64,000 nt of DNA from a virus (taxonomy: Duplodnaviria; Caudoviricetes), in IMG/VR virus record IMGVR_UViG_3300047557_002530. The stretch is one strand, 5' to 3'. A program made the position numbers and the translations under genes. The notes under the pieces are model-generated. The model ran no database searches. It saw only the letters and a list, made by a program, of their open reading frames with translations, and was not told where the DNA came from. Below are positions 2,770-42,867 of this stretch, piece after piece (position 1 is the first letter of the stretch; every line of letters starts with the position of its first letter).

Positions 2770-3303
2770 ATGATTGAACCAATAGGATACAAACTTAATC
2801 CAAAGAAACTCAAAAAAGCACCACAATATATTACTCCTTATTTGTTTCTTGGTGCTTTTTATTACACCGAAGATTATGAGTATTTTGATGTAATTAAACC
2901 TTATCTTGATATTCCAGAGAAACCTAAAACTCTGGAAGAAATCTCACAAGAGTTTGATGAGAAGATTGATAAACAGATTGAAGATGTAGAGTATAAGTTC
3001 GCACAACTCAAATACTATCAAGAGTATCAGTTTAGTAAAAAGATTACCAAGATTATTGAGGATATTGAGTATGCGAAAGAACACGGACAATTCCCAGTCA
3101 AACTCACAGTAGGTGATTTATGTTGTTCTAACGTTGGTATCAGCAGTACTGTAGATTGGAGTACAGAGTTTAGAATTGGTAAAGATGAGGTAGGATACTG
3201 GGACATCAAACCAAACATCAAAGTGTATCTGAAAAAGAAACCAAATCGTGTTGTGAGATACTTTACTAAATTGCTTCTGGACTTTACTTGGAAAGATGTA
3301 TGA
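2770..3303 (+). CDS. hypothetical protein
   Basis: First ORF after E1. Confidence 0.8.
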   Translation: MIEPIGYKLNPKKLKKAPQYITPYLFLGAFYYTEDYEYFDVIKPYLDIPEKPKTLEEISQEFDEKIDKQIEDVEYKFAQLKYYQEYQFSKKITKIIEDIEYAKEHGQFPVKLTVGDLCCSNVGISSTVDWSTEFRIGKDEVGYWDIKPNIKVYLKKKPNRVVRYFTKLLLDFTWKDV

Positions 3304-3593
3304 CTAATCCTCTCATAGAAAAATATAATGAACTCTACGGAAAGAAAGAAGAACCAAAACCAGATTATTATAAGGGTGAAAAGTCATACGCAGAAGAACT
3401 GGAAGAACTTCGGGATACTTCTACTATTCCTGTTAGTAAAATCAAATCTTATGACATTAATAGTGTGAATGTTTCTTTTCATCAAGTCGTAGAACAAGTC
3501 AAAAAAGGTGAGGCACAAGTATCCAGTATGAGTATGGAAATGGATATAATGTATGGAACAAAAATAACCTTTGAGGTTTATGTGGACACTTGA
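3300..3593 (+). CDS. hypothetical protein
   Basis: ATGA overlap; its last codons lie inside E2. Confidence 0.75.
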   Translation: MTNPLIEKYNELYGKKEEPKPDYYKGEKSYAEELEELRDTSTIPVSKIKSYDINSVNVSFHQVVEQVKKGEAQVSSMSMEMDIMYGTKITFEVYVDT

Positions 3594-26701: not shown

Positions 26702-26866
26702 ATGCCCTTCACAAAGAAGTTTCCAAAGTCAGGTGAAACAAAACACATCAGAGTTCCAGTTGTTTATGCTGATCTAGTATTAGAACTTATGGATCTATTT
26801 GAAACTAAATTTGAACCAGAGAAGGGCAAACATCTACTCAAAAAATACATAAGTAATCTCAGTTGA
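26702..26866 (+). CDS. small protein, possibly ribbon-helix-helix-like
   Basis: TKHIRVP strand followed by helices; fold is a guess. Confidence 0.45.
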   Translation: MPFTKKFPKSGETKHIRVPVVYADLVLELMDLFETKFEPEKGKHLLKKYISNLS

Positions 26867-34960: not shown

Positions 34961-36338
34961 GTGACTACCGCACAACGGATGGAAAAAAAGTTTTTCATTA
35001 ACTTCATTCAACTTGTTAATGAAGTACAAAATGCAAAAACTATTCTTCCTTCTCAAGTTCGCAATCGCAAATCTGCATGGGTTAAGCAAGTTCAAAATCC
35101 CAAGCAAAAAGCAGATGCACTCTCTCGCGTTTAAGTTTTAATTCTCTCAACAAACAAAACAAACAATTCATGATGACTTTTTCCGAAGCAATTCAATCTC
35201 TTCCTTCTTTCATTTCTGAGATGCAAGCAGATTGGGAAATGGTTTATGATTGGATGATTGATATGTGTGAAATTGCTGAGTTCAGTGATGAAGAAAATGC
35301 TGAACTTGCAATTACTTACGCACAATATGCTGACTGAGTTTTAATTCTCTCATTCACCAACACTCAACAAACAAAATGATTATCAAGTACACTTTCGACA
35401 TTGAAACTCAACAACCTGCATATGCAATTTGTAATGAGAATCACCAATGTGGTTTTGTGACTTATGATATGACAAAAGCAATCAAAGCAGCACAATGTAA
35501 AAACTTCGATCAAGTTCAACAACTCATCAATGCCTGAAATGACTGAAATGTACGAAGTTACTTATCAGATTCCTTACAACGATTGTGAGTGGAGAAGTCA
35601 ATACTTTAATACTAAAGATGAAGCAGAGAGAATGCTAGAGTTCTACAAATCTTGTGGTTCGCCTGCTAAACTGTATGAACGTAAAGTAAGTAACTGAAAT
35701 GATTTCTCTTCCTAATCCAATGATTGATTCTGTTACATTACATTCTGCTCTTGTTGAACTTTGTAAAGAGGATCAGAAAGTTCTTCAACAACTATTAGAT
35801 GAGTATATAAGTTCATTGAATACTGATGAACTTAATCGACTTGAAGATTTCATTGTTAATTACTACCGATTCAGCACTTGATCTTTTCGGTCTTGAAGAT
35901 TTCATTGTTAATTACTACGATTGATGAAACTGAAAACTAAAATCAATCTATTGTCAAAAGCAATCAACGGCAAAGAACTTCTTATTATTCTTAATTCACT
36001 GAAATGATTCTTCTTCAAAAACAAGATTACGGTTGCATCTTTACTCTTGACCCTGATTCAAAAGAATTGTATTATGCTCCCATCTATCAAAACAACACTG
36101 TAAATCTAAATGAATTTGCACCTGTTGATCTTGCTGATGTAGATGATGAGTATGATGTACTCTCTATTCAACAAGAACTGATTCAACTTACTCTTAACAA
36201 CTGATGAACGATTCTACACTTGATCTTTTCTGTCAGCACGAAGATGAAGCATTTGCTGATGAATATGCAATGGAATTAGAAAGGAAAGCAGCAGAGTTAG
36301 AAATTACTGTTGATTATTATATGATGGAGTTTATTTGA
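34961..36338 (+). other. final run of very small ORFs (34961-35134, 35170-35337, 35376-35537, 35539-35697, 35699-35881, 36004-36204, 36204-36338)
   Basis: Closely packed short ORFs, mostly below the track cut-off. Confidence 0.6.
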
Positions 36339-36476
36339 TATAATGATAGTGTTATATTAAATAAATGTATTAAAAAACATATATGAGTTTTCAACAAGTC
36401 TGTGGAAAACGTTGTTGAATATGTGGAAAACTATGTTTAATGTCTATAAATGTCTATAAATGTCTATAAATGTCTC
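36339..36476. other. origin-like locus: AT-rich tract, four DnaA-box-like 9-mers, 10-bp tandem repeat
   Basis: TTTTCAACA 36388; TGTGGAAAA 36401 and 36422 (TTTTCCACA on the minus strand); TGTTGAATA 36413; (TGTCTATAAA)x3 36441-36470. Confidence 0.5.
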
Positions 36477-36501
36477 AGAGTCTTGTGATCTTGGATTCTG
36501 T

Positions 36502-36530
36502 ATTATAACACAACAGCACTGTTTTGTCAA
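36502..36530 (-). promoter_or_regulatory. perfect sigma70 consensus promoter pointing left, with no ORF downstream
   Basis: Minus strand TTGACA-N17-TATAAT. Confidence 0.75.
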
Positions 36531-36605
36531 TACCCCGCCGCCACTCAAAAAACTGGCACAAGGCGATAATTATAAAACAGTATAACACTATTGTTATATG
36601 TTATG

Positions 36606-36646
36606 AAACCCGTGAGACTCAGTATTTTTATGAGTCTCACGGGTTT
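36606..36646. repeat. perfect 16-bp inverted repeat
   Basis: AAACCCGTGAGACTCA-N9-TGAGTCTCACGGGTTT. Confidence 0.9.
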
Positions 36647-37084
36647 TTCTTTATGTACCTGTAAGACTCACGCGACGCAAACCACACAGAAAAGTGGCAC
36701 TTGGTCTCATGAGTCTTGCAAAATCGGATGTAGACTGTTAGGGCGGTAAGAGGGAGGGAAGATCATAAGAATCCCCCACACACTGGGTAATACTTATAAA
36801 CACTCCCAGACATACCTATATGCCCCTAGAAGGCGCTTATAATTACTTTTAGGTGTCTTCATACCTTATAGCACCTATTTTAAGTTTTGAAAAAACTTGT
36901 ATAAATAAATCACCTATTCAAATTCAATAGAGCAGCTCTTGAACTTTCCTACGGGACCAAAAGGTAACAATCTGACAGAAAGAGAATAGAATTATAACAC
37001 ATTGATGGTTTATATGAAAGGCGAACAGGGTTTAACTATAGGTTTCCCAATGTGCCAAATGCCCGATGAAGAATATCAAACTCC

Positions 37085-37395
37085 TTCGTGATTAGGTGCT
37101 TTCCGTGCCATTGAATTACTTACAATCAATTGCTAAACATAAGAATCAAAAGTTCTTTCGTGTTTAGATAGATTTCGTATGGCTTTTTATAATATCAAAC
37201 AATCACTGAGATAACAACTCAAAGTTTGTTCGTGATTAGATAAGATTCGTACAGAGAATTTATATTTCACCACACTCATCAGAATGTCTTTAAGAATTCA
37301 TTCGTGATTAGATAAGATTCGTATTGATATTGATTCTGATAAACATTTACATGCATTTGTACTTGAAGATGATTCGTTTATAATCAGAGTTCGTT
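37085..37395. repeat. five-unit array with an exact 72-bp period (23-bp conserved block plus 49-bp variable segment)
   Basis: Blocks start at 37085, 37157, 37229, 37301, 37373; units 3 and 4 are identical TTCGTGATTAGATAAGATTCGTA. Confidence 0.8.
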
Positions 37396-37407
37396 GTAGG
37401 GAATAAC

Positions 37408-37436
37408 TTGACAGTCAATATAAGGTCTGGTAGAAT
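37408..37436 (+). promoter_or_regulatory. sigma70-type promoter
   Basis: TTGACA-N17-TAGAAT. Confidence 0.75.
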
Positions 37437-37469
37437 TAAGTCCGTAGAGTTTATTCGTTCTTCCGTCTT

Positions 37470-37643
37470 ATGGCAACTTCTTCTCTCACAGCACAGTCAC
37501 AAAAGAACAAGTATCGTATTACGTTAGAATTAAACGTGAATGAAGATTTTAATCCTCATCAGATTGATTGGAGTAAACTCTTTGATCTTGATCGTAACGA
37601 ACACGTTAAGAGTTACGTAGAAGATCTATCTACTCGCTGGTAA
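37470..37643 (+). CDS. small hypothetical protein (57 aa, not in the ORF track)
   Basis: MATSSLTAQSQKNKYRITLEL...; has its own promoter. Confidence 0.7.
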   Translation: MATSSLTAQSQKNKYRITLELNVNEDFNPHQIDWSKLFDLDRNEHVKSYVEDLSTRW

Positions 37644-38134
37644 TTATTAATACTTAATACCAGTAAGAAACATCGTCTTATAGATGTTTCGTTCATTCTT
37701 TATATACAGTGTTACCTAATAAGAATTAAGTTGTCTGATTATTCTTCTGATTTCGGGCAACTTAATTCTTTATTCTTATTATTATTCGTTGTTAATTGAC
37801 AGCAGTTAGTATAAAGAATAGGTAATTCTTATTATATAAGTAGACAATTTTCGTGCTACTAGTATAAACAATTCGTTGTTTTATTCTAATAGCACAGTGA
37901 TTGGGGGGGCAGTTAGTATAAAATAGACGAATAATAATAGTTATTCGTTGTCAGTTGTTTATTCGTGTTAGCAGTTATTTTAATTAATTGTTTATTGTTT
38001 ATATTTTGCGTTGCCCCCCGTTTATAAAAATCGATAAGTCCCTAACCTACAGTGTATGTCTTTTTCGATCTCTATATCACTCTCATAAAAAAAAAATTTC
38101 CCAGAAAAAAATAACCTCAAAAAGAGCAAATAAA

Positions 38135-38498
38135 ATGAAACAACGCCCATATTGGAGTTTCTGGAAAGTAGTCTTTGCTGGGTATCTGATACGTTATCCG
38201 GGGAAAATTCTGAAAATTTTTGGCGTTCCTCTTGGAATTCTACTAGTCATAATATATAATGCAGCGAACAAATAAAAATTTTCCGAAAAATTTTTTTATG
38301 AAAAATCAAGAAAAGATATATCACATATATGCAAAGGATAAGTGCATATATCACAGTCTTTCAGAGGAAAAATTTTCTGAGACCTGGGAGATGTTGCACA
38401 GGATGGTTGATTTGCTTGGGAAGGGCATTGAAAAAGATGATTTACAGTACGAATCTTTGTTTGTGAATAAAGAGGTCGTATTAAATTCTTCTCATTGA
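38135..38498 (+). other. small ORFs 38135-38275 (membrane) and 38298-38498
   Basis: Starts moved to the ATGs after A-rich leaders. Confidence 0.65.
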
Positions 38499-38547: not shown

Positions 38548-39024
38548 ATGCTTTTGTTGGATAGATTTTATGACAAATTGCCAGATATTCTCGATGAAGA
38601 ATCTTGTTGGGAATGGAAAGGAGCAATAGATAGGTATGGATATGGTGCTTTTTCTATTGGAAAAAAGACAGTAAAAGCGCACAGGATATCATACGAAGTT
38701 TTCTATGCAGAACCACTGAATGATCTTTTATGCTTACATAAATGCGACAATCGTAGATGTGTAAATCCTCAACATCTATTTGCAGGAACAAATCTCGATA
38801 ATATGAGAGATAAAGTTCAGAAAAATAGATGTTATAGTGGAGACCAAAAGGGAGAAAATAATGGGGCATCAAAACTTACTGACAATCAGGTAAGAGAAAT
38901 TAGACAATTGTATAATTCTGGAAAATATACAAAATCAAAACTTGGAAAAATGTATAAAGTCCATCGAACTACAATTTATTATATTGTAAATAAAAAAACT
39001 TATAAGCCTATCTTGGAGGGTTAA
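38548..39024 (+). CDS. HNH homing endonuclease (His-Cys type) with a C-terminal helix-turn-helix
   Basis: CWEWKG..GYG..AHR.SY..CLHKCDNRRCVNPQHL..GT..DN; TTGACA-N18-TAAAAT upstream. Confidence 0.88.
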   Translation: MLLLDRFYDKLPDILDEESCWEWKGAIDRYGYGAFSIGKKTVKAHRISYEVFYAEPLNDLLCLHKCDNRRCVNPQHLFAGTNLDNMRDKVQKNRCYSGDQKGENNGASKLTDNQVREIRQLYNSGKYTKSKLGKMYKVHRTTIYYIVNKKTYKPILEG

Positions 39025-40554: not shown

Positions 40555-40956
40555 ATGCCTTCTGAAAGGATAAGCAAAGCATTTAAAGATATTAGTTTAT
40601 CCTTTCAGGTTAATCCCCTGAATTATGACTTGATTGCGATCAAAAATGAGACTGCTATCGCACGTTCTATACGTAATTTAGTTTTGACTCAACCAGGAGA
40701 GAGATTTTTTAATCAAAATCTTGGTTCTAAGGTAAATCAGTCTCTTTTTGAAAATATTGATGATATTAGTGCTTCTATACTTCGCGATGAAATCAGAAAC
40801 ACTATTGAAAATTATGAACCAAGAGTTGATTTAATAGATGTTGTAGTCACCCCAAATTATGATGATTACGAATTTAGCGTAAATGTTAGTTATTACATAG
40901 TTGGTGTTGATGTATTACCACAACAGTTAACATTTGCATTACAACCAACACGATAA
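40555..40956 (+). CDS. gp25: baseplate wedge subunit gp25
   Basis: SIRNLVLT.PGER.F...GS, IENYEPRV; directly upstream of gp6. Confidence 0.92.
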   Translation: MPSERISKAFKDISLSFQVNPLNYDLIAIKNETAIARSIRNLVLTQPGERFFNQNLGSKVNQSLFENIDDISASILRDEIRNTIENYEPRVDLIDVVVTPNYDDYEFSVNVSYYIVGVDVLPQQLTFALQPTR

Positions 40957-42867
40957 ATGGCACTAGTTAATTTCACAAACCTAGATTTCGATCAAATCAA
41001 AACTTCGATTAGAGATTATCTCAGATCGAACTCAAATTTTACTGATTATGATTTTGAAGGATCTAATCTTTCTATAATCTTAGATATTCTAGCGTATAAT
41101 ACATATATTTCCTCATACAATGCTAACATGGTTAGCAATGAGGTTTTTATTGATAGTGCCACACTCAGGGAAAATGTTGTTTCCATTGCAAGAAGCATTG
41201 GGTACACTCCAAGATCAAGAACAGCATCAAAAGCAAACGTTTCTTTCTTTGTAGATACTTCTACAGCACCTTCTCCACAAAAACCTCTTACATTAACCTT
41301 AAAGAAAGGAATTGTATCCACTACTTCTGGATCATTTAGTGGAGTAAGTTATGTTTACTCTATTCCAGATGATATAACTGTTCCTGTTATTAATGGAATT
41401 GCTGATTTTAGTAATATCACAATCTATGAAGGAACTTATATTACAGAAACCTATACGGTAAATTCATTAGATCCAAATCAAAGATTTATTTTAAACAACG
41501 CAAACATAGATTCTTCTCTTATTCGCGTTGAAGTTAGGGATGGTTCTCTTGGACCAAGAAAGAAATATATCCAATCAAACAATATTTTAGACATTAACTC
41601 CGAATCAAGAATTTTCTTCATTCAGGAAATTGAAGATCAAAGATATGAGATTATATTTGGAGATGGTATTTTTGGTAAAAAATTAATTAATGAAAATATT
41701 GTCGAAGTTTCATATGTGATTACAAATGGAGAATCCGCAAACGGAGTTTCTTCTTTTGTTTTTAATGGAACTATTGTAGATAATAACAACTTTGATGTTA
41801 CGAGTGGTATTTCACTCATATCAACCAATATTGCAGCAAGTGGTGGTAAGGAGATAGAATCTGTAGACTCTATTAAGAAATATGCAACTAGAATTTATGC
41901 AGCACAAAATAGAGCAGTAACTTCAAGTGACTATGAGGCAATCATTCCTCAAATATATCCAGAAGCAGAATCGGTTTCTGTATTTGGCGGAGAAGATTTG
42001 GATCCACCGCAATACGGAAAAGTTTTTATTACAATTAAACCAGAAGGTGGTTTCTTTGTTTCCAATGGCGTTAAAGATAATATAAAGAGTGCTCTTAAGA
42101 AGTACTCTGTGGCAGGTATTGTTCCTGAAATATTAGATTTAAAATATCTCTCTATTGAAATTGATAGTACAATATATTACAACAATAATAATGCACCATC
42201 TTCAGATTATGTTTCAAGTGTTGTAAGTAATAACGTACAAAAATATGCCAACTCTTCAGAATTAAACAAGTATGGTGCAAGGTTCAAATATAGTAAGTTT
42301 TTAAGAATTATTGATGATAGTCACGAATCAATAACTTCTAATATAACAACAGTTCAGATGAGACGTGATTTAAAACCAGTGTTAAATAGTTTAGCAACAT
42401 ATGAAATTTGTTTTGGAAATCAGTTCCACATCAAAAATAATGATGGATTTAATATAAAATCATCTGGGTTTTATATTAATGGTATTGAAGATCCTGTTTA
42501 TTTGACTGATGTGCCCGATGTAAATGGAATAACTGGCATCATTAACATTTTTAGATTGAATTCTGCAGATCAATACAAAATTATAGTTGCCAATGCAGGA
42601 ACTATCAATTATGTAAAAGGTGAAATTAATTTAGATGCCATCAATATTTTACAAACTGTTAAAAATGATGGCGAACCAATCATAGAAATTTCTGCAATTC
42701 CAGAATCTAATGATATTATTGGACTACAAGATCTTTATTTAAATCTCAACATTAGTGATGTTAGTTTGGAGATTTTACCTGACAAAATTTCATCTGGAGA
42801 TGATCCTTCAGGATCTACATATACAAAAACAACAAGTTACAGTAATGGTTCTATTATAAGAGAATAA
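40957..42867 (+). CDS. gp6: baseplate wedge subunit gp6
   Basis: LDFDQIK...FTDYDFEGS..ILDILAYNT...NE.F.DSA.LRENVVS; AQNRAVT..DYE. Confidence 0.93.
   Translation: MALVNFTNLDFDQIKTSIRDYLRSNSNFTDYDFEGSNLSIILDILAYNTYISSYNANMVSNEVFIDSATLRENVVSIARSIGYTPRSRTASKANVSFFVDTSTAPSPQKPLTLTLKKGIVSTTSGSFSGVSYVYSIPDDITVPVINGIADFSNITIYEGTYITETYTVNSLDPNQRFILNNANIDSSLIRVEVRDGSLGPRKKYIQSNNILDINSESRIFFIQEIEDQRYEIIFGDGIFGKKLINENIVEVSYVITNGESANGVSSFVFNGTIVDNNNFDVTSGISLISTNIAASGGKEIESVDSIKKYATRIYAAQNRAVTSSDYEAIIPQIYPEAESVSVFGGEDLDPPQYGKVFITIKPEGGFFVSNGVKDNIKSALKKYSVAGIVPEILDLKYLSIEIDSTIYYNNNNAPSSDYVSSVVSNNVQKYANSSELNKYGARFKYSKFLRIIDDSHESITSNITTVQMRRDLKPVLNSLATYEICFGNQFHIKNNDGFNIKSSGFYINGIEDPVYLTDVPDVNGITGIINIFRLNSADQYKIIVANAGTINYVKGEINLDAINILQTVKNDGEPIIEISAIPESNDIIGLQDLYLNLNISDVSLEILPDKISSGDDPSGSTYTKTTSYSNGSIIRE

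Follow-up and report, generated by a model that had tools for sequence, protein, structure and literature searches.

A 72-bp-Period Box Array Adjoining an Early Promoter in a Freshwater T4-like Cyanophage Genome: A Putative Protein-Docking Element

Abstract

This study analyzed a non-coding repeat array that lies directly ahead of an early promoter in a viral genome from freshwater. A core sequence and its spacing of approximately 72 bp are conserved among related phages, the locus is unique in the genome, and the boxes hold defined positions relative to the promoter. From this pattern we infer protein binding, cooperativity, and a direction of regulation; the putative docking array most likely controls the promoter, replication, or both.

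Results

The window analyzed here (64,000 nucleotides) makes up the first 64 kb of an IMG/VR virus record that is 156,235 bp long (36% G+C), with an estimated completeness of 74%. The baseplate genes gp25 and gp6 at 40555-42867, psbA at the far end of the record, and the one-strand gene layout indicate that the source phage is an uncultured freshwater T4-like cyanomyovirus. The same DNA recurs in the freshwater metagenomes of many studies, and the nearest psbA matches are those of freshwater Synechococcus/Cyanobium. All large ORFs of the window lie on the + strand and its GC skew is positive throughout; a search for a GC-skew switch across the whole genome identified none. Approximately 1.5 kb of DNA (36650-38134) is non-coding, with a 57-aa ORF (37470-37643) as its island. 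The ORF listed at 37988-38275 (95 aa, TTG start) probably encodes only a 46-aa hydrophobic peptide from the ATG at 38135, and its 5' part is conserved non-coding sequence. Farther downstream, an HNH + HTH_7 homing-type endonuclease gene (38548-39024) was found in only six related loci, and RNA-library contigs run from 38501/38547 straight into 39029, skipping it. This sporadic occurrence and the contigs joined across its site show that the gene was inserted recently and is polymorphic in natural populations.

The original prediction described five blocks with an exact 72-bp period, and our analysis recovered them: TTCGT-N12-TTCGT blocks begin at 37085, 37157, 37229, 37301, and 37373. A direct-repeat search returned one family with start-to-start distances of 72, 72, and 72 bp, to which unit 5 adds the fifth start. 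The proposed pair of TTCGT-like boxes 17 bp apart was present in the blocks, except that the second box of unit 1 is degenerate (TTCCGT) and the spacer of unit 5 is a variant. The cores all lie on the + strand. The unit 1 core (37076-37111), with its first box intact, lies 72 bp ahead of that of unit 2 (37148-37183), which comprises AAAGTTCT and TTCGTGTTTAGATAGATTTCGTAT and fits the core consensus derived from 49 distinct units. Unit 3 (37220-37255) holds the consensus 23-mer TTCGTGATTAGATAAGATTCGTA, unit 4 (37292-37327) carries an identical 23-mer, and unit 5 (37364-37399) is a variant block, TTCGTTTATAAT..TTCGTTGTAG. As had been proposed, only units 3 and 4 have the 23-mer in common, the outer units being degenerate, and the identical block has stop codons in all forward frames (TAA, TGA, and TAG, one each). 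The claim that no ORF occurs here needs a small correction: two short ORFs overlap the array, a trivial one of 30 aa on the minus strand (37187-37279) and a possible one of 28 aa on the plus strand (37005-37091). The latter terminates at the TGA in the first box of unit 1, and its stretch GGCGAACAGGGTTTAAC..TTCCCAATGTGCCAAATG is conserved in the related loci L001, L003, L004, L015, L029, and L038; some of the changes are at third positions, but L015 has no start codon.

In the 64-kb window, the two-box pattern was found five times where 0.46 occurrences were expected, and none of 100 shuffles reached five; the composite block has no second site in the 156-kb genome. The 1-kb region from 37000 to 38000 contains 16 of the genome's 124 + strand TTCGT boxes. 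The core is not palindromic, the 23-mer has no dyad, and no obvious 10-bp AA/TT periodicity was detected in the intervals. The array escaped Tandem Repeats Finder, its intervals having diverged too far.

Beyond the end of the array as originally given (37395), TTCGT boxes continue to 37966. Six of them lie on the same (+) strand in a downstream non-coding stretch (37688-37966), at 37688, 37785, 37850, 37872, 37944, and 37962, and their positions are kept in relatives; an inverted pair, ACGAATAA/TTATTCGT, occupies 37927-37948. Two hairpins follow the 57-aa gene at 37721-37770 and 37667-37690, one an 18-bp stem with 89% complementarity and one terminator-like (8 pairs), and RNA-library contigs of two studies both end nearby at 37709. 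The non-coding element at 37900-38100, after the 57-aa gene, is strongly conserved (also at 2740-2840 of L068) and comprises, in order, GCAGTTAGTATAAA, the ACGAATAA/TTATTCGT dyad, two TTATTCGT boxes, and ..CCCTAACCTACAG.. with a hairpin. Its last part is retained even in the marine phage Bellamy, and the element may represent a leader or small RNA ahead of the gene for the 46-aa membrane peptide.

The comparison of orthologous loci that the original prediction called for was anchored on the 57-aa ORF (phrog_12516), with which 62 IMG/VR loci were retrieved. Paired boxes were found upstream of the ORF in 41 of the 62 (L001-L039, L045, and L050). The exact 23-mer occurred in 27 IMG/VR contigs, in this clade alone and always at this locus. 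Alignment of the 49 distinct 72-bp units yielded a core of approximately 35 bp, composed of AAAGTTCA, TTCGTG(A/T)TTAGATAAGATTCGTAT, and (A)G, whereas the remaining 37 bp or so of each unit held little information; TTCGTGATTAGA and TCGTAT are the core parts that stay invariant over more distant lineages. The identity of the core between lineages was 83-99%. That of the intervals was 93-97% in close pairs, 67-79% in intermediate pairs, and 34-46% in distant pairs, to be compared with a random expectation of approximately 30% for this composition and with 42-70% at the fourfold-degenerate sites of flanking genes. Among 110 adjacent unit pairs, the period was 72 bp in 85 (77%), 71 bp in 14, 70 bp in six, 69 bp in five, and 73 bp in one. 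The value is typical of each lineage and holds although the intervals are saturated. The core is conserved and the intervals vary by substitution while the period stays within 69-73 bp; selection thus acts on the core sequence and the interval length but not on the interval sequence.

The number of units is stable at four to six, and so is their order. In L038, two adjacent 71-bp units are identical, and the array clearly grows by whole-unit duplication. This evident duplication and the weak positional similarity between intervals, noted originally and seen again in the 49-unit alignment, would both fit a neutral or selfish tandem duplication decaying without function. That explanation is extremely improbable, as the core and period are retained where the intervals have fallen to random-level identity. 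A neutral repeat was expected to lose its period in close relatives, but the array is kept in the same position, period included, in approximately 40 freshwater cyanophage contigs whose neighboring protein is 67-100% identical. Downstream of its 57-aa ORF, at 3230-3560, L038 also carries a second tandem duplication, of units of approximately 70 bp with GGCAGTTAGTATAAAGAACTCT four to five times, which suggests that the control hub is prone to whole-unit duplication. Many IMG/VR contigs end inside the array, probably because assembly breaks at the repeat and not because a genome terminus lies there. A blastn search of 36600-37900 against 50,697 phage records returned no match, and our literature search found no description of this array.

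The geometry alone, a constant core of approximately 23-35 nt alternating with differing intervals of approximately 37-49 nt, resembles a CRISPR-like guide array in which the intervals would be acquired targeting segments, and the original prediction had offered a transcribed repeat-spacer RNA as one of two readings. We rejected the guide-array reading. The intervals are orthologous, inherited in order, and diverge gradually by substitution, with no polarized gain or loss; the stable unit number and the non-palindromic core also argue against it. The interval search proposed originally yielded only chance-level matches in phage and cyanobacterial genomes: no match of interval length in the 50,697 phage records, 15-27-nt matches with E > 2 in five freshwater picocyanobacterial genomes, and at best 26 nt with a mismatch in 301 host-family genomes. 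The matches in these 301 look like chance because they fall mostly in small genomes (1.0-2.0 Mb; probably AT-rich). As predicted, no cas gene is visible; Pfam and PHROG scans of 20 ORFs at 33.7-41 kb, approximately 3.5 kb either side, detected no cas-like or RNA-guided effector gene, and the sporadic homing HNH gene is the only nuclease nearby. The absence of conserved RNA structure, described below, points the same way.

The sigma70 promoter predicted just after unit 5 was readily identified on the + strand at 37408-37436. It consists of TTGACA (37408), a 17-nt spacer, and TG-n-TAGAAT (hexamer at 37436), an 11/12 match, and represents a strong early-type promoter of the 57-aa gene whose conservation extends to every related locus. 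The end of unit 5 is 13 bp from the -35 hexamer, which places the unit at approximately -71 to -49 relative to the predicted start site, and relatives keep both its variant form and its distance from the promoter (34-36 bp, start to start). Another TTCGT box (37451-37462, +) lies in the 5' leader, 16 nt ahead of the start codon of the conserved 57-aa gene, and nearly all array-bearing loci have this leader box at -16 to -25. For L038 and L045, the box enclosed by the 17-nt spacer of the same promoter is TTCGT; for L049, L053, and L058, it is of the AGATTC type. A box so placed is in an operator position. Sites of the repeat family abut the core promoter in the window and overlap it in relatives.

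Other lineages carry other boxes at the array's place. L049 and L051-54 have 8-11 copies of CAACTAGATTC(G/A)CAT, L055-57 and L059 have six copies of a palindromic (A)TCTCGACGAGA, and L058 has a CGAGATTC box; for the CTAGATTC(G)CAT boxes, the 8-11 copies compare with a background of 0.2-0.3. The window's AAGATTCGTAT and the TAGATTCGCAT of L053 agree at 9 of 11 positions, so the 72-bp array looks like a regularized, lineage-specific form of a wider promoter-linked box family. Among the related box arrays are 13-bp palindromes centered on a single nucleotide, which point to dimer binding on DNA and not on RNA. Together with the boxes in promoter spacers, these palindromes appear to be the marks of a protein on duplex DNA. 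In the marine phages S-SM2, Bellamy, and P-TIM68, as in some contigs, the promoter and gene are present but the repeats are missing; therefore, the array seems to be an accessory control element.

Phased protein-binding iterons were the preferred reading of the original prediction, and our results favor it: the core and period are conserved while the intervals randomize, each genome has a single such locus, and the boxes overlap the adjacent promoter in relatives. A protein-binding array acting at the DNA level, whatever its function, is likely, and transcriptional control may be its main function, a tentative assignment. Each 72-bp unit would constitute one composite site of approximately 35 bp, that is, AAAGTTCA followed by TTCGTGATTAGA, 5-6 nt, and TCGTAT. 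Four to six such sites at a fixed distance of approximately 70 bp could be bound cooperatively by a sequence-specific protein, which would wrap or stiffen a DNA segment of approximately 360 bp that extends up to -49 of the strong early promoter. Occupancy would then switch the promoter of the 57-aa gene, most simply by shutting it off after the early phase, and may also switch the downstream promoter-like elements that bear the same box. Several features count against this proposal: the spacing of usual operator and iteron arrays is far narrower than 72 bp, and periods of 69-73 bp do not hold one helical face. Furthermore, all boxes are oriented with transcription, the stretch follows a late promoter (an early one in some relatives), the intervals are A-rich on the + strand, and the array is present in RNA-library contigs, so that an RNA-level role keeps some probability.

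Candidate binders were sought near the array and elsewhere in the record. The Pfam and PHROG scans of the same 20 ORFs (33.7-41 kb) detected no DNA-binding family, and no ParB_N domain was found across the 156-kb record. The 57-aa protein is a poor candidate for the binder because it is acidic, has no recognizable DNA-binding fold, and keeps an N-terminal strand that is invariant across box types. Its AF2 model (strand, short helix, strand; pLDDT 73.5) matched no fold in the PDB, and the ESM Atlas returned only unnamed viral clusters. A 54-aa ORF at 26702-26866, ribbon-helix-helix-like by eye, was also set aside; it matched nothing in Pfam or the phage records and was present in one of five related partial records. 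In the five freshwater picocyanobacterial genomes, the composite core with up to three mismatches was not enriched (3 sites versus 5 in the control). The palindromic variant exceeded its control in the same genomes, with 76 sites (152 rows, each site counted on both strands), but all except two of them are mismatched and the excess carries no weight as evidence.

The units might instead be weak, activator-dependent tandem promoters, in which TAGATA would take the place of the -35 element and be followed, after 17-18 nt, by a TAnAAT-like hexamer. A consensus scan identified a 10/12 match in unit 2 (TAGATA-17-TATAAT) and a 9/12 match in unit 3 (TAGATA-18-TATATT), many units of relatives have nATAAT at the same offset, and the unit length is close to the footprint of RNA polymerase. 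This arrangement is nevertheless highly improbable. The number of promoter-like sequences in the region does not exceed that of shuffles (15 versus 9.7 +/- 3.3), the key T of the -10 element occurs in less than half of the non-redundant units, and the core is found at no other site in the genome and hence does not mark a general promoter class.

The late promoter predicted at 36900 corresponds to a T4-type box, TATAAATA, at 36900-36907 (+), from which the array would be transcribed late; in L011, L035, and L037, an early TTGACA-17-TAGAAT promoter lies directly before unit 1. Contigs from RNA libraries of four studies cover the array, and two of them begin just after TATAAATA, at 36922 and 36929, one with an adapter remnant. 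Because of these contigs, the array is very probably transcribed, although they carry no information on strand, ends, or level and may reflect DNA carry-over. Three RNA-library contigs stop at 37255-37257, where one contig runs on into the sequence of another strain; the stops probably reflect co-occurring strains that diverge after the unit 3 core and are not read as a processing site.

These observations raise the possibility that the element acts as RNA, with the transcribed, repeated 35-nt core either offering an RNA-binding protein or nuclease several decoy sites or being cut into unit-length RNAs with variable segments. The strand bias (16 of the 17 boxes in the 1-kb region are on the transcribed strand) and the A-rich + strand of the intervals are consistent with it, as are the perfect hairpins of some intervals. 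We regard an RNA-level element as improbable. RNAalifold on seven orthologous arrays (-0.62 kcal/mol) showed no shared structure beyond a trivial invariant weak stem; one of its eight predicted pairs has a compensatory change (columns 81/105, GC/AU/GU), and no conserved structure or covariation was evident. A search of 37000-37470 in Rfam returned nothing at the gathering score or at E <= 1. Over 34 non-redundant intervals, the mean hairpin z was -0.68 forward and -0.48 reverse; these hairpins were not used as evidence because striking stems are few and inconsistent in place and presence. In addition, a strict length constraint is unexpected in a decoy RNA, the related arrays show the DNA-type features described above, and nearly everything is transcribed anyway in a one-strand genome. 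The specific version in which a late transcript (early in some relatives) with four to six cores functions as a decoy or scaffold, or as units of approximately 72 nt whose fast-evolving segments have targets of their own, is likewise improbable. If true, such a repeat RNA array would be a phage repeat-RNA class without described counterpart.

The remaining alternative is that the cores are replication-origin iterons, at which a phage or host initiator or an accessory protein would help to open or organize an origin-like module. In a variant of this idea, the cores form a one-way fork barrier beside the module, and the effect on the promoter is secondary autoregulation, as in iteron plasmids. 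The origin-like module lies at 36331-36530, 550-750 bp upstream of the array. Its very AT-rich 60-mer ranks seventh among the least stable of the genome, and the module also contains a pair of TGTGGAAAA boxes 21 bp apart, 3.7 copies of a 10-bp repeat (AATGTCTATA), and a perfect leftward promoter (TTGACA-17-TATAAT) firing into the TGTGGAAAA boxes. We take TGTGGAAAA to be the complement of TTTTCCACA, the cyanobacterial DnaA-box consensus. The pair recurs at approximately -1050 to -1180 in L027, L034, L037, and L039, whereas in L040, L043, and the marine phage S-SM2 it lies at -216 to -326; a similar AT-rich stretch with CTTATAA repeats was observed in L053, L055, and L059.

A replication role is thus about as natural for a bound array at this position as promoter control. 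The array locus is a single, non-coding, direct-repeat locus conserved in position, the alternative boxes of array-free lineages lie within approximately 200 bp of an AT-rich stretch, and a comparable combination of evenly spaced repeats with small ORFs and an early promoter is found at T4 oriE (PMC3016281). Replication-origin iterons as such are nonetheless unlikely. Iteron origins have direct repeats of 17-22 bp approximately two helical turns apart, whereas the core here is approximately 35 bp and the period of 72 bp corresponds to approximately seven turns. The AT-rich element and DnaA-type boxes are present, yet a terminator, a conserved non-coding piece, and the late promoter lie between them and the array. 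A Rep3-type initiator (Rep3_N) is absent from the 156-kb record, itself 74% complete, and the adjacent small acidic gene product is not Rep-like and occurs without arrays. Finally, the genome lacks a GC-skew switch, and marine relatives with DnaA-like boxes lack the array.

Discussion

Taken together, our analyses suggest that the array is most likely a cooperative operator for the early promoter, set in a conserved hub that may also serve replication. The locus is a defined cis-element under selection that adjoins a conserved early promoter and an origin-like module. Its 72-bp phasing over randomized spacers represents an unusual natural case of selection on DNA geometry, not sequence; the array does not reveal a new immune or guide-RNA system. 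To our knowledge, no sequence-specific regulators have been described for T4-like cyanophages, whose early-to-late switch and origin usage are inferred from T4. Only one origin of a T4-like cyanophage has been predicted, that of Syn9 (PMC2984593). The locus opens two questions, both directly testable, namely which protein marks the hub and whether the hub sets the timing of early transcription or initiates replication.

Several known systems share parts of this arrangement. CRISPR arrays also alternate a constant element with differing intervals of similar size, but the phage array shows no acquisition pattern, no external matches beyond chance, and no cas genes among the 20 ORFs scanned around it, and its repeat is not palindromic. 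The sopC locus of the F plasmid, with 12 tandem 43-bp units each holding one short SopB site, resembles the array in its exact long period with an embedded site. Its units are near-identical throughout, its site is an inverted repeat, and sopAB is adjacent, whereas the phage intervals are unconstrained and the record has no ParB_N-type protein; moreover, it is not obvious why a lytic T4-like phage would need partition.

In ParR/parC of plasmid R1 and in the omega-repressor heptads, short repeats in the same direction flank or overlap a promoter and are bound cooperatively, wrapping the DNA and acting as an operator. The phage array is similar in that same-direction boxes are arrayed at one promoter, with boxes in the promoter spacer. 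The repeats of those systems are 7-11 bp long, contiguous or approximately one turn apart, and have a ribbon-helix-helix binder next door, unlike the phage sites of approximately 35 bp with a 72-bp period in a record without ParB_N. Iteron origins (pSC101, P1, R6K gamma, and lambda ori) likewise have direct repeats at a single locus, with DnaA-type boxes, AT-rich DNA, and a small gene and its promoter close by, and in both cases the specificity differs by lineage. Their 17-22-bp iterons are spaced approximately 22 bp apart beside a Rep gene, in contrast to the phage array with its seven-turn spacing, no Rep3_N, and approximately 600 bp to the AT-rich module.

The nearest named precedent appears to be T4 oriE, where evenly spaced direct repeats termed iterons occur with an early promoter and the small ORFs repEA and repEB, their role being unproven (PMC3016281). 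The T4 repeats have a 24-bp period, lie inside gene 5 antisense to the small ORFs, and coincide with a repeated peptide of the gp5 needle, and the 57-aa protein shows no similarity to T4 RepEA or RepEB. The likeness by analogy lies in the setting: both loci belong to T4-type phages and place evenly spaced direct repeats near baseplate-wedge genes, together with an early promoter and ORFs of 45-57 aa.
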